Assembly (NCBI RefSeq): GCF_056712565.1
Contig: NZ_CM160072.1
Direction: 5' to 3' (one strand)
DNA: 64,000 nucleotides
The position numbers were made by a program. Within the stretch, counting starts at the first letter, position 1. Every line of letters starts with the position of its first letter. Below are positions 6,001 through 12,000 of this stretch, in pieces.

Positions 6001-9000
6001 GCGCGGTATGGAACTGGATTTTCTTCTGAACCCGGTGGTGATGTACCAGGCTGTTGTTACAGATTTTTAACTCCATGAAAACACTATGCAAACGCAGCCA
6101 TACCCGGGGTGTCCCCTTGCGTTGTGTTCCTCAAGTTAATAGAATACATCGATCGTTACTATTATATTGATCGTTATAAACGATCGTTTGTAGTAAATGA
6201 CCTCCTCCGTGGTTGTCATGAAAATGCGTCTCAGGAAGGTTAAATAATGCACGAAAAGAACATCGCCCTGCTTTGTGATGAAGCCGACCGACTTTTGCAA
6301 CTGAACATTAATCTGCTCCGGCAAATGGTTGAGGAGCCAGATGTGTTATCTGACAGTAAGAACGAAAACAGACTGCTTTTTGATAAACAGAAAGCACTGA
6401 AAAGAATTGAGGAGCTGGAGGGCGAACAAATCAAAACCGCCCGCAGGGAGATGGTGCTGGCTGTTGTCGGCACGATGAAAGCAGGCAAATCAACCACCAT
6501 CAACGCCATTGTGGGGCAGGAAATTCTGCCTAACCGTAACCGCCCCATGACCTCTGTACCGACGCTCATCCGCCACGTTCCCGGAAAAACTGAGCCGGTT
6601 CTCCATCTGGAACATATTCAGCCTGTCCGCAATTTATTAATCACACTGCAGGAAAAACTCGCCACCCCGGCAGGACAGCAGGTCGCACAGACCCTGCAGC
6701 AAACCGGGGATACCCGCGAACTGCTGGATATTCTGACGGATGATGGCTGGCTCAAAAATGAATACCACGGGGAGGAGGAAATCTTTACCGGACTGGCATC
6801 GTTAAACGATCTGGTTCGTCTTGCTGCGGCAATGGAGACTGAATTTCCTTTTGATGAATACGCAGAAGTGCAGAAACTGCCGGTGATCGACGTGGAATTC
6901 AGCCATCTGGTGGGGATGGATGCATGCCAGGGAACACTCACACTGCTGGATACCCCCGGCCCTAATGAGGCCGGACAACCGCAGATGGAAGTGATGATGC
7001 GGGATCAACTGCAGAAAGCCTCTGCGGTTCTGGCTGTGATGGATTACACCCAGATGAACTCAAAAGCGGATGAAGACGTCCGTAAAGAGCTTAATGCCAT
7101 TGCTGACGTATCAGCCGGCCGCCTGTTTGTACTGGTCAATAAATTTGATGAGAAAGACCGCAATGGCGATGGGGCAGATGCCGTACGCCAGAAAGTTCCG
7201 GCAATGCTGAACAGCGATGTGCTGCCCGCCTCCCGCGTTTATCCCGGATCCTCACGCCAGGCATACCTGGCTAACCGTGCGCTTCATGAGTTACGGAAAA
7301 ACGGAACCCTTCCTGTTGATGAAGCCTGGGTCGATGATTTTGTCAGGGAAGCCTTCGGTCGCATGAAAAAAGATTACGTCTGTAAAGACAGCGAACTGGC
7401 AACTGAAGGGGCGACAGACCTGTGGGAATGCTCACTTATCGATCAACTGATAACGGAAGTCATACTGAGTTCACACTCCAGAGCTGCGGCACTGGCGGTT
7501 GATTCTGCCGCCGCAAAACTGATGCAGAATGCAGAAAATATCAGTGAATACCTGTCGTTACGCCATCAGGGGCTGATGCAAAGTATTCAGTCACTGCAGG
7601 CGCATATCACCAGCCTGCTTGAGGATATCCGGGAAATAGCAGACTGTCAGGAGCAGGTGACCGCTGATGTCAGAATGGCCATGGAGGAGATCGATGCCAG
7701 AACCCGGGAATTACTGACGGGGGTCTGCACCTCACTGGAAGAGGAGCTGAATGACTATTTCAGAAGCGGTAAACGCAAAGAACAGCAAATGCTGGAGGAA
7801 GAAAATTCAGCGCAGCCCCGGGAGAGAAACGCATTCGCTTTCTTTCACGATATTTTCGGAACCGGAAATCAGCATGACAGGATGCGGGACTTTGATCCCG
7901 ACAGCCCCGAAATAAAATTCAGTGATCGCAGGGAAGCCCTTGAACTGATGACGCAAATCGAATCGACCGTGACCAGCCTGCACCGTGAGGCTGAAGCACA
8001 GTTCCGGCCTGAGCTGGAGAAAATCGTCAGCGGGATTGAAACAGGTTTTCGTGGCACGGCCCTGTACGCCACAGAAAACATTGCCGGTCGCATCAATACC
8101 CGCCTGGAGGATGAGGGCTTTACCGTAAAAATCAGTTTTCCGGCAGTCAGTCAGTTACAAACCCGGCTCGCGGTAAAAACAAATCTGAGTGCGCTTATGG
8201 AGGAAAGAACGGAGACCGTCACCCGTCGCCGTCGGCAGAGTGGTTTATGGGGAAAGATTTGTGGAGCGTTTGGCACCAGTGACTGGGGCTGGGAAACCTA
8301 TAAAGAGGATGTGAGCCGCAGTGTTATCAATATCAACACCGTCAGGAAGGAAGTTATGTCACTGACCCGGGCATATTTCGGGGAGCTGCAGGCATCCATT
8401 GAGCAGGATATTAACCAGCCCGTCCGCCAGGAAATCGATGCCTTTTTCTGCGCATTCAGGGAGAAAGTTGAACAACTGCGTAACACGCTGATTCAGAGCT
8501 CTGAAGATCATAAACGCGATCAGCAGGCACAGGAACGGCTTACCAGGCGACTTCAGGCATTAAATGAAAGGGTTCCTGAGCTCATTACTGACAGTAAGGC
8601 GCTGAGGGAAGAGCTGGAGACAATGCTGTGACTTCACCATTTATTCAACAAATTGCTGATAACCGGGTATGTCAGGTACTCACCTGTCTTCCTGAAAAAT
8701 TTGTGGTTGATTTCGCAAACGGAATCGATGTTGCACAGGAGCATATCCGCACGGCCGGAGAGCGCACGTTCTTCCGGCGTTTAAAAGAGGGACTGACCGG
8801 CGAAGGCGCTGCACGGCAGAATGCCATCAATGCTTCGGTTGCACAGGGCCTTGAGGCGTCCCTGCGCTGGCTGACGGAGCTGACAACGTCACTTGCCACC
8901 ACAAACTACGCGATTACCCGGGTAAACGACAGGGTCAGTTCACTGGTCAGTGATACTGCCAGGCTGGCGCATTATTCCGCAGATACACGGGAGCAGTTAC

Positions 9001-12000
9001 TCATCCTGGCCGATCAGGTTCACCATAAACTGAATCATCTTGAAGAAAAACTCCACCGTGTTGACCAGGTTCAGCGGGCGCAGTTACATCTTGAGCAGAT
9101 ATTCTCATGGTGGAGCGCCGGGCGATATGCGTCATTTTCCCCTGCCGGACGTTGTTATGTGGCGCTTGAAGAGCTTCGCTGGGGCGCGTTTGGTGATGTG
9201 ATACGTCAGGGCGAAACAGGCCAGGTTAACCAGCTACTGGATATTCTCAGACATAAAGCATTAACGCAGATGGCACAGGAGAGTGGCGGTAGTGCAACCG
9301 TGCGTCTGAACACTCTGGACTGGCTTGGTGGTCAGGGCCGGGAGCAGGCAGATAACGAGTGGCATGACGCGATTAACTGGCTGGGAGACTGGTGCAGTGA
9401 AGAGCAGCATCCGGTGATCTGGTCAACCACGCAGGCTGCAGAACACTTACCGGTTCGCATGCCTCGCCTCTGCTCTGCAGAACGCCTCTCTGAAAGTATG
9501 GTCGATGAAATATTTCAGAAGGGGGCTGCATGAGTACAGAAATGAAAACGGGGCTGGTGCTGTCCGGTGGCGGGGCGGTGGGCGCTTATCAGGCGGGAGT
9601 GGTTAAGGCACTGGCAGAGTGTGGTACACAGATCAGCATGGTTTCAGGGGCCAGCATTGGCGCATTCAATGGTGCCATTATCGCGGCCTCTCCCGATCTG
9701 TCAGAAGCTGCCGTACGCCTGGAGGCGCTCTGGGATCATCTGGGGAATAATCAGGTGCTGTCGGTAAACCGATTGGTTTACTTTTCATTGCTGAAAAAAT
9801 TGTTCCAGGCAATGAACCTCTGCCAGATCCCCGGACGTGCAGGAGCACTGCTTACGACGCTTCTTCGCCATATATCGATACTCAACGGGTTTGACAATCT
9901 GATGGCTCAGCCGTTGTTGTCAGATGAGCCCCTGACAGCGCTGTTGGATCATTATCTTGATACTGATGCTCTGGCAGACGGGCTACCGCTGTATGTGTCG
10001 CTGTACCCCACAGAAGGGGGCATGCAGGATATTATTGACTGCATTCGTGCTGAACTGGGTGCCGGAACCACGAAAAACGCCGTTTTTCAGCATATCCAGA
10101 GCCTGCCCCGCGGACAGCAGAAAGAGGCTCTGCTTGCGTCAGCCGCGCTGCCCCTGCTGTTCCGTCCCCGTGAGGTTCAGGGGACAATGTTCGGTGATGG
10201 TGGTATGGGAGGATGGCGAAATATGCAGGGAAATACCCCTGTGACGCCTCTGGTCGATGCCGGATGCAATATGGTGATTGTGACGCATCTGAGTGACGGT
10301 TCTTTATGGGATCGCCAGGCTTTTCCGGACACCACAATCCTTGAGATCCGTCCCCGGAAAAGGCTGAAATATGCAGGTGATGGTGACAACAGCGGCGGTC
10401 TGCTCAGTTTCACGTTGGCACATACCGACGCCTGGCGTCAGCAGGGCTATGAAGACACGATGCTGACGATGGAGCATATCCGGAAACCGCTGGCAGCACG
10501 TCAGGTACTGTCCCGGTCAGAAACGGTGTTGCAGAAAAGTCTGGAGATAACGGAAGAGGCAGATTTGGCACTGAGAAACGCGATGGCCCGGATTAAATAA
10601 AGACGCCCCAAAGAAACGCCACCGCCTGTGGTGGTGTTTTTCCTGGCTGGTGTTATTGAAAATATTTTCAGATATATATTACCTGAGAGAAAGTTTTACC
10701 CCTCACCTGTCAATTCACTCACTGGAAATTTAATTATGCAATTACCTGTAAAGTTATTAATGAGCCTTATATCTCTGGTCAGCGTTATTGCACGTGCCGG
10801 GAAATATAAAAATTACATCCGGGATGAAATAAAATACTGGCGATATACATCATACAAGGGGGGGGAATTTCCGGAAGGTTTCACTGATGAGAAATTTTCC
10901 AGCGCCATTTACAACGGAAGAATATTTACAATGAAACGTTTACATACCCTGATGTTATTTCTGGCGGTTCTGTTTACTGGCTTTAACGTGGAAGCAGCGA
11001 GCGTGAAACAAGCGCTCAGCTGCGACCCAAACGCCCGGGCTGAACAACCTGGAGCGTGTCCAACAACGTACGAGTTGTACGAAGGTGACGCTGCCTACAA
11101 AGCTGCGCTTGACAAAGCATTAAAACCGGTCGGACTGAGCGGCATGTTCGGTAAAGGCGGGTATATGGATGGCCCTGGCGGAAACGTAACGCCAGTAACC
11201 ATTAACGGTACAGTCTGGCTCCAGGGCGACGGTTGCAAAGCCAATACCTGCGGCTGGGACTTTATCGTAACACTCTATAACCCAAAAACCCATGAAGTCG
11301 TTGGCTACCGCTACTTTGGTTTAGATGACCCGGCCTACCTGGTTTGGTTCGGCGAAATTGGCGTGCATGAATTCGCGTATCTGGTGAAAAACTACGTAGC
11401 TGCGGTTAACTAATTTAAGGAGTCTGTCATGAAAACTTTTATCAAAACTTTACTCGTTGCTGTAACTATTCTGTTCTCTGTCTTCGCTACGGCGAAACAA
11501 GTAAAACTGCCAAACAACATCAAATACGTTAATACTACAGAGGCGTTTTCCTGTACTGAGATTGACGGTATGAATTGCCAGACGAAGAATCCGTTTAACT
11601 ATAAAGATAACAGCTATGTTTTCGTGCTTGAACGTGGTGGTGCCTGGTGTTACGACTACACTGTCTCGGTACTTAACCTGAAAACCGGGAAAGCACAGAT
11701 GCTCGAATACAAAGACAACCAGCTGTGCTCAGGTAGCAACAAACCGTTCTTCGAAATCAAAAATGGCGTACCGACGGTAGGAGTCATCGACACATCCGGA
11801 AAACCTGTCGTTGTGGCTCTGGACAAACTTAAAACCTGAGGAGTAAACCATGCGTTTCTCTGCACATTATTAATATCAAAGGTAAATACAGCCCCAGCCA
11901 TTGTTGCCGGAAAGCCGCTTAATGCGTGGCTCGCCAGTGAAAGGCTTCTCAGACAATAAACCTCATTCATTTCACCCGTCAGGCCGCGTCTTCTCCGGGA

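Follow-up and report, generated by a model that had tools for sequence, protein, structure and literature searches.

What is a dynamin-like GTPase doing in the same operon as a patatin-like phospholipase? The question is raised by a three-gene locus at positions 6247-10600 of a 64,000-nucleotide stretch of an Escherichia coli chromosome (contig NZ_CM160072.1 of RefSeq assembly GCF_056712565.1), the whole of which is referred to below as the window. An initial annotation had described the locus as a candidate defence or membrane-remodelling system in which a single dynamin-like protein is coupled to a lipase by a helical adaptor, a combination that could not be assigned to any named system. The coordinates of the open reading frames (ORFs), their strands and their stop/start overlaps are exactly as given there:

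6247-8631, plus strand: gene 1, RdcA/CrfC-type dynamin-like GTPase, 794 amino acids, ATG start
8628-9533, plus strand: gene 2, RdcB/YjcZ-family partner protein, 301 amino acids, GTG start
9530-10600, plus strand: gene 3, patatin-like phospholipase, 356 amino acids, ATG start

The pair formed by genes 1 and 2 is assignable after all, since by sequence comparison the two proteins are full-length paralogues of RdcA (CrfC/YjdA) and RdcB (YjcZ) of E. coli K-12. Together with gene 3 they form an invariant, translationally coupled unit across the Beta- and Gammaproteobacteria, hereafter the triad. With a probability of roughly 45%, the triad is an accessory, mobile paralogue of the RdcA-RdcB switch, a cytosolic module whose output would be the co-encoded patatin lipase rather than the diguanylate cyclase DgcE, and whose role likely lies in conflict.

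The product of gene 1 carries the GTPase motifs GTMKAGKST (residues 75-83), DTPG (235-238) and NKFD (298-301), and residues 71-299 match Pfam Dynamin_N (E 1.2e-17). BLASTP aligns residues 57-794 with K-12 RdcA at 34% identity (E 5e-122), which amounts to full-length homology. The NCBIfam CrfC model NF007368 spans residues 1-793 with 550.7 bits, far under its equivalog cutoff of 1146, and gene 1 is therefore a paralogue rather than an orthologue of CrfC. All 28 homologues compared share the G1 motif, switch-I Thr102, G3 and G4 without change; K81 and T102, the counterparts of K82 and T103 of RdcA, are among these invariant residues. The sole solved sequence relative is the bacterial dynamin-like protein (BDLP) of Nostoc, which is matched in the P-loop region only (E 1.3e-5).

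Gene 2, previously taken for a protein with nothing recognisable in it, matches Pfam YjcZ (PF13990) end to end (residues 26-296, E 2.5e-71) and is 31% identical to K-12 RdcB over its full length. Its AlphaFold model is all-helical (predicted local distance difference test score, pLDDT, 76; predicted template modelling score, pTM, 0.78), with a confident C-terminal domain. The model has no specific structural relative in the PDB, and in AFDB it is matched by YjcZ proteins only.

In gene 3 the motifs GGGAVG (residues 13-18), GASIG (40-44) and DGG (223-225) lie within a Pfam Patatin match (PF01734, residues 9-239, E 7e-25), so that for both enzymes the motifs first read by eye agree with the Pfam families. 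All 33 homologues retain Ser42 of the GxSxG motif, Asp223 of the DGG motif and the glycine-rich box unchanged. Position 17, within the anion-binding box G-G-G-x-K/R-G, is Lys in 26 and Ile in 5 of the 33; it is Val in the alleles of the window, of E. coli MP1 and of E. albertii, and Ile in other Enterobacterales. The structure of gene 3 is nearest to PlpD, next to CapV/CapE, and then to VipD, including the VipD-Rab5 complex. The C-terminal residues 296-355 were modelled as a single long helix.

The relation of the triad to the K-12 operon was surveyed at the species level in GTDB representatives, one genome per species, with a YjcZ alignment spanning both types. The 79 loci obtained split cleanly into 29 nearer to gene 2 and 50 of the K-12 type. 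A patatin homologue, 41-95% identical to gene 3, lies directly downstream of the YjcZ gene in all 29 gene-2-like loci, and the GTPase gene is upstream in every one of them with enough upstream DNA. The same gene order, with junctions that overlap (-1, -4 or -8 bp) or are shorter than 20 bp, is found in 31 of 32 triad loci of other species, which bears out the proposal of a single co-translated unit. The exception is Methylomonas (M. koyamae, L003; also L004), where an additional ORF of 99 amino acids, without a Pfam match, is located between the GTPase and YjcZ genes (6617-6916 in L003). No patatin gene follows K-12-type rdcAB in any of the 44 loci with at least 1.2 kb of downstream sequence. 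Instead, proP is next in 43 of these 44, as in K-12 itself, where rdcA and rdcB overlap by 4 bp and are followed by proP. Because the same order recurs across species and all three genes show purifying selection between alleles (ratio of nonsynonymous to synonymous substitution rates 0.09-0.39), the three-gene arrangement is far beyond chance.

The two types also differ in their taxonomic range. All 50 K-12-type loci belong to Enterobacteriaceae. The 29 gene-2-like loci come from E. albertii, Pantoea, Erwinia, Budvicia and eight Pseudomonas, and further from Chromatiales, Oceanospirillales, HdN1, six betaproteobacterial genera and two oddly binned metagenome-assembled genomes (MAGs); environmental non-pathogens such as Methylomonas, Gallionella and Allochromatium are included. 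The two MAG triads, labelled Syntrophomonadaceae (L025) and Synergistaceae (L035), are 43% and 36% identical to gene 2, respectively. Mis-binning is suggested for L025, which encodes the very same proteins as L023, a MAG that the same study assigned to the Gammaproteobacteria.

When 1.84 billion cluster representatives were searched exhaustively with a profile, only 500 YjcZ-family clusters emerged. Among the 145 examined, 131 are nearer to gene 2 and 10 nearer to RdcB, and intermediate representatives (P0129, P0150 and P0159) are about 40% identical to both clades. The three most divergent lineages inspected, with 24-27% identity to gene 2, retain the dynamin-YjcZ-patatin order with 4-bp overlaps. 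The co-occurrence of the three genes elsewhere, on which the initial annotation had made its proposal depend, thus extends from the 29 loci to these lineages as well. The cluster counts and the divergent lineages indicate that the triad is the prevalent form of the family and rdcAB a compact, lipase-less branch confined to Enterobacteriaceae. The neighbour-joining YjcZ tree was midpoint-rooted without an outgroup, so that the only guide to how triad and rdcAB evolved from one another is the breadth of distribution, which favours the triad as the ancestral form.

As paralogues of RdcA and RdcB, could genes 1 and 2 provide a second input to cyclic di-GMP (c-di-GMP) signalling, the pair regulating DgcE or another MASE1-domain protein and the lipase having a side function? 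RefSeq annotates the trio as a dynamin family protein, a diguanylate cyclase regulator RdcB family protein and a patatin-like phospholipase family protein; the second of these names, that of gene 2, implies such a role, which would agree with the full-length homology of both proteins and with the conservation of the K82 and T103 equivalents as K81 and T102. Yet identity is just 31-34%, gene 1 falls far under the CrfC equivalog cutoff, and the triad always brings a candidate target gene of its own. Its clade is also taxonomically much broader than the Enterobacteriaceae-restricted rdcAB clade. Among 5,426 complete E. coli genomes, 2,621 carry the triad (2,442 at 80% coverage or more; up to five places per genome) and 5,416 carry the core crfC-rdcB genes. 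The two systems thus coexist, although K-12 itself is without the triad, and the near-universal retention of core rdcAB means that the triad is not needed for DgcE control. A different role has also been argued for the operon in print (PMC12922286). A c-di-GMP function is on these grounds very unlikely.

The K-12 pair nevertheless offers a template for the mechanism. RdcA forms dimers, associates with RdcB and attaches to the MASE1 domain of DgcE, leading to its activation (PMC6510439). The GTPase-dead T103D variant of RdcA is inactive while the P-loop variant K82A is fully active, from which the authors concluded that nucleotide-free RdcA is the active form, that GTP acts as an inhibitor, and that the pair thereby senses how much GTP is available (PMC6510439). 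By analogy, the gene 1 GTPase would dimerise or oligomerise and bind its YjcZ-type partner, and the GTP-bound complex would be off. Hydrolysis of GTP, or a drop in the GTP pool, would then leave a nucleotide-free complex able to bind and activate its target, here presumably the lipase, which would cleave inner-membrane phospholipids from the cytoplasmic face. Three considerations point to the lipase as the target: it is obligately coupled to the pair in every lineage, it is absent from the DgcE-targeting clade, and patatins need protein co-activators. Patatin lipases are inactive until such a protein binds, as in the VipD-Rab5, ExoU-ubiquitin and ATGL-ABHD5 pairs (PMC12871566, PMC3521694). The module might be triggered when the nucleotide pool collapses, or by a cue from a phage or prophage. 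An operator-binding repressor probably governs its transcription in E. coli, and WYL regulators probably do so in other taxa. The least certain step is the role, which is most likely one of conflict or defence on behalf of the mobile host element, in the form of an abortive-infection-like or membrane-damage response.

A scan of sequence and hydropathy detected no signal peptide and no transmembrane-grade segment in any of the three proteins, and the module is therefore predicted to be cytosolic. The maximum Kyte-Doolittle value of gene 1 over a 19-residue window is 1.02, so that no hydrophobic paddle or transmembrane segment is detectable, with the qualification that such a scan can miss amphipathic paddles. 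This bears on a proposal made for the MP1 operon (PMC12922286), according to which the dynamin GTPase would itself be the effector. Like DynA, it would protect or repair membranes, stabilising or resealing the inner membrane during phage lysis or pore-forming stress, while YjcZ and the lipase would serve as regulators or lipid-remodelling helpers. In favour of this are the intact dynamin G domain and the up-regulation of the operon in lysogens; the lipase could make fusogenic or curvature-inducing lysolipids, and DynA is reported to delay phage-induced lysis in a manner that requires membrane binding. Gene 1, however, belongs to the RdcA lineage, whose K-12 member is reported to be a soluble regulator (PMC6510439) and not a membrane remodeller, and no paddle or transmembrane segment is detectable in it. 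The operon has one GTPase gene, in place of the tandem or two-headed layout typical of membrane-active bacterial dynamin-like proteins, and a catalytically intact lipase that is the invariant partner in every lineage looks like an output rather than a helper. A membrane-repair GTPase is hence considered unlikely.

The accessory character of the triad is evident from its genomic settings. The chromosomal location differs in almost every species. Triads were found in integrase islands (L006, L090 and L091), in CP4-like islands with RadC, CbeA, CbtA, DUF932 or YfjT (the window, L007 and L094), and inserted between ileS and lspA together with Uma2 and Fic (L005). In the window, the operon is followed by DUF932, an antirestriction protein, YeeS, YeeT, CbeA, CbtA and YeeW, adjoining yeeA/sbmC, so that its description as cargo of a CP4-44-type island next to antirestriction and CbtA/CbeA genes was correct. 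Strains 536 and Nissle 1917, among others, match window positions 6100-10700 with 100% identity. The triad is also present on 44 plasmids. A plasmid variant 62% identical to gene 2 resides on IncFII plasmids of Klebsiella, Enterobacter and E. coli, beside repA and flanked by insertion sequences (IS). Two K. pneumoniae IncFII triads (L088 and L089) have a shorter GTPase gene (743-773 amino acids) whose 5' end abuts IS1 or IS5, and the GTPase may therefore be N-terminally truncated or driven from an IS promoter.

Published expression data connect the operon with lysogeny. A five-gene cluster of E. coli MP1, SID94_19700-19720, is the top up-regulated one in the genome of Kapi1 lysogens (PMC12922286). 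It consists of the triad and two downstream hypothetical genes. The MP1 operon was reported to be about 30% identical to core RdcAB and was named a putative dynamin phage-defence system; EcoKI and Druantia are located on the same MP1 islands (PMC12922286, 2026). The combination is unnamed, as the initial annotation held, but it is not undescribed, having been pointed out in print by that study. Window positions 5783-10683 are 95.7% identical to MP1, and the three proteins 95.6%, 98.3% and 93.3%, so the MP1 data apply to an allele of the window's operon. A 2026 study of Shiga toxin-producing E. coli O118 also gives the triad genes as island cargo.

The neighbours of the triad in other species include regulators and genes of defence. 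A WYL/WCX regulator of the BrxR/CapW type is the most recurrent neighbour, found in 8 of 29 species-level loci and belonging to two unrelated WYL subfamilies; such regulators are often directly upstream on the same strand, and occur also at L093 (107 bp upstream), L096 and L092. PADLOC was run on the flanks of 10 of the 29 loci, L012 and L022 being left out, with crude ORF calls of which some are spurious in high-GC genomes. Six of the ten flanks contained matches:

L010 flank: BrxF
L011 flank: SNF2 helicase and a JukA-like ORF 58 bp downstream
L021 flank: JukA-like ORF and WYL
L019 and L028 flanks: WYL
L027 flank: type I restriction-modification pair HsdM/HsdS from 179 bp downstream

The JukA-like ORF lies about 50 bp past the patatin gene on the same strand (L011, 8034-8498; L021, 7993-8730; a homologue in L036), with matches to PADLOC JukA models at E 4e-34 and 4e-30, in two species of Pantoea/Erwinia and one of Pseudomonas. 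It may be an optional fourth component or a separate adjacent system.

The mobility of the triad, its induction in lysogens, the WYL regulators and the defence genes nearby together favour a role in conflict of the abortive-infection type. A defence role is plausible, the evidence being circumstantial. A more specific scenario is conceivable, though the odds are clearly against it as a whole: the triad would be an abortive-infection-type immune system in which the GTPase pair senses the GTP state or a phage cue and licenses a membrane-destroying lipase, and rdcAB would be a domesticated descendant that lost the lipase and captured DgcE.

Several observations weigh against a lipase-armed conflict module. 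Effector swapping, sought in distant YjcZ relatives by the profile search and in three contexts, was not found, all having the patatin. An AlphaFold model of YjcZ fused to the patatin through a (GGGGS)6 linker, built with 22 paired orthologues, had a pTM of 0.53 and gave no contact information. Judging from its place in the anion-binding box, Val17 of gene 3 could lower basal activity or shift substrate preference in the enterobacterial island lineage. PADLOC-DB v2 returned for the three proteins only a partial LeoBC match of 24.2 bits and phospholipase-effector matches of 14-20 bits, in line with the earlier view that no named defence system is present, and NCBIfam gave no equivalog for any of them. 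The window's own flanking ORFs have no defence-family match. Four of the ten scanned flanks were without a match, and the count of six is descriptive, having no background rate. Part of the MP1 up-regulation signal is affected by multi-mapping reads, and up-regulation in lysogens is compatible with non-defence roles too. A literature search (dynamin plus patatin; anti-phage) found no functional study of the triad, and within the papers searched a dynamin, a YjcZ protein and a patatin are brought together only by PMC12922286 and the O118 study. In some O157 copies an IS element interrupts the GTPase gene. Lastly, the chromosomal neighbourhoods at L003 and L092 are unremarkable, and the triad was not found among 50,697 phage records.

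Absence from phage genomes would also suit a module for island maintenance or competition between elements, in which the GTPase/YjcZ complex would hold the lipase in check as a latent toxin. Cells losing the island or plasmid would be killed by it, or else it would target incoming plasmids and other elements rather than phages. The position of the triad beside CbtA/CbeA and antirestriction genes in CP4-like islands, its adjacency to repA on IncFII plasmids and its occurrence in up to five places per E. coli genome agree with this idea. There is no sign that the components differ in stability, the operon exceeds the size expected of an addiction module, and the non-mobile contexts in several species (L003 and L092 among them) are hard to reconcile with it, making such a function decidedly unlikely.

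The pathogenicity-island settings of the triad in extraintestinal pathogenic E. coli (ExPEC) 536, Nissle, the CFT073-type aspV island and O157 recall LeoA of enterotoxigenic E. coli (ETEC), a dynamin-like protein that has been linked to vesicle and toxin release. By this comparison the GTPase and the lipase would promote the release of outer-membrane vesicles or toxin in pathogenic strains. Gene 1 is not LeoA-like by hidden Markov model (HMM), all three proteins are predicted to be cytosolic without a secretion signal, and the triad occurs in environmental, non-pathogenic Beta- and Gammaproteobacteria; a vesiculation factor is accordingly the most improbable of the explanations considered. The lipase-armed conflict module remains the preferred reading.

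At the junction of genes 1 and 2, CTGTGACTTC, the GTG start (8628-8630) and the TGA stop (8629-8631) share a 4-bp GTGA overlap, and at that of genes 2 and 3, GCATGAGTAC, ATG (9530-9532) and TGA (9531-9533) share a 4-bp ATGA overlap. A Shine-Dalgarno motif (GGAG or AGGGGG) is located 5' of all three starts. Three candidate control elements surround the operon:

6136-6165, plus strand: candidate sigma-70 promoter, TTAATA, 18-bp spacer, TATTAT; 9/12 in a consensus scan, about 80 bp before gene 1
6150-6189, no strand assigned: candidate operator, three CGATCGTT cores, each with a Dam GATC site, read in the sequence
10617-10644, plus strand: terminator-like hairpin CACCGCCTGTGGTGGTG followed by TTTTT, beginning 17 nt past the gene 3 stop

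The promoter candidate is weak, its score being no better than the shuffled expectation of the region; the MP1 allele has TATAAT at the position of the window's TATTAT -10 element. A FliA (sigma-28) promoter scan scored the region upstream of K-12 rdcA no better than the window. The operator candidate includes a perfect 7-3-7 inverted repeat, GATCGTT-ATA-AACGATC (6169-6185), the stem of which is reported by the scan, and it overlaps the -10 element and the sequence just downstream. The motif is kept in the MP1 and E. albertii alleles, where it is extended to a 10-bp palindrome, AACGATCGTT; upstream of triads in other genera it was not found. The CGATCGTT cores may represent a repressor operator or a methylation-sensitive site, which might explain the induction in Kapi1 lysogens. 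The terminator-like hairpin falls within the MP1-conserved block (window 5783-10683).

Upstream of the operon, an ORF of 144 amino acids that is annotated as hypothetical and has a P-loop (GKSGAGKSS; window 5595-6029) is the remnant of a YeeP/YfjP-type GTPase family protein and not a dynamin. Its MP1 counterpart, which precedes the triad, is frameshifted. The ORF is a piece of the island framework and no component of the triad. Just before the triad, the minus strand of window 160-5166 encodes, as island cargo, a TonB-dependent receptor and an ABC uptake system (substrate-binding protein, FecCD permease and ATPase). The Methylomonas triad is flanked by FecI/FecR/TonB-receptor genes, a likeness to this cargo that is probably coincidental. 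Downstream, two ORFs (10736-11413 and 11429-11839) encode small proteins with signal peptides. The first resembles a deletion fusion of an N-terminal SID94_19705-like remnant with a SID94_19700 homologue, the latter part having an internal Met and then the signal peptide MKRLHTLMLFLAVLFTGFNVEA. The MP1 counterparts of both ORFs are co-up-regulated with the triad in lysogens. Neither ORF has a PADLOC or NCBIfam family, and they are not kept beside triads in other genera. The remainder, window 16000-64000, is ordinary core: tmaR, yeeA, sbmC, dacD, sbcB, yoeB-yefM, the his operon, the O6 O-antigen cluster and colanic acid genes. In strain 536, plaP is frameshifted.

The triad is built from known parts and is less novel than was at first supposed. 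If the proposed reading is true, conflict systems would gain a new control logic, in which a patatin lipase is gated by a large GTPase switch instead of a nucleotide second messenger. The reading would give a function to a gene set that occurs in about 45% of the E. coli sequenced, with ExPEC, O157, Nissle 1917 and IncFII resistance plasmids among its carriers, and would explain the strong response of the triad genes to lysogeny. RdcA/RdcB would be reframed, the characterised c-di-GMP regulator representing the smaller branch, without a lipase, of a family that mostly takes the form of the triad. The relation between the two would then exemplify the recruitment of an accessory conflict module to core signalling, or a move in the opposite direction.

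Among known systems, K-12 RdcA/RdcB is the closest. It shares with genes 1 and 2 the two families, their order, the 4-bp coupling, the conserved P-loop Lys and switch-I Thr, and soluble proteins without transmembrane segments. It differs in being a core, vertically inherited two-gene operon that is found at a conserved site and acts on DgcE, whereas the triad is accessory and mobile, always includes the third, patatin gene, and forms a larger and taxonomically wider clade. Since gene 1 scores below the equivalog cutoff, and neither the two-gene layout nor the chromosomal site is shared, the triad is a paralogous variant of RdcA/RdcB and not a member. Gene 1 has the dynamin G domain with the G1-G4 motifs of the membrane-remodelling BDLP/DynA/LeoA type. 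DynA of Bacillus subtilis is likewise a bacterial dynamin-like protein, with a demonstrated phage-related phenotype, but it is a two-headed membrane-binding fusion that acts alone, with no YjcZ or patatin partner.

The analogies first drawn with LeoA/Eleos and CapV/CBASS (cyclic-oligonucleotide-based anti-phage signalling system) did not extend to membership when HMM scores and gene content were compared. Eleos (LeoA/LeoBC) and ETEC LeoABC resemble the triad in having a dynamin-family GTPase on mobile islands and a proposed link to phage defence or membranes; unlike it, they have two or three dynamin-like proteins but neither a lipase nor a YjcZ protein. The triad has one Dynamin_N protein, its partial LeoBC match (24.2 bits, E 4e-6) includes no stretch that passes alone, and LeoA is not matched, so identity with Eleos was rejected. 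With CBASS CapV/CapE, which are among the nearest solved structures to gene 3, the common feature is a patatin-fold phospholipase as the likely membrane-degrading output. Identity with CBASS was rejected too, because no cyclase (CD-NTase) is present among the three proteins or the adjacent ORFs and gene 3 scores 18.3 bits against the CBASS_lipase cutoff of 200. The triad has no cyclic-nucleotide sensor, its putative activator being a protein GTPase complex rather than a nucleotide second messenger. Legionella VipD differs from the triad as a secreted effector that responds to a small eukaryotic Ras-family GTPase through a dedicated C-terminal Rab-binding domain, to which the long helix at the C terminus of gene 3 shows no detectable resemblance. 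It is, for all that, the parallel to the proposed coupling, a patatin-like phospholipase that is turned on by a GTPase, host Rab5/Rab22, in a defined nucleotide state (PMC3521694, PMC12871566).

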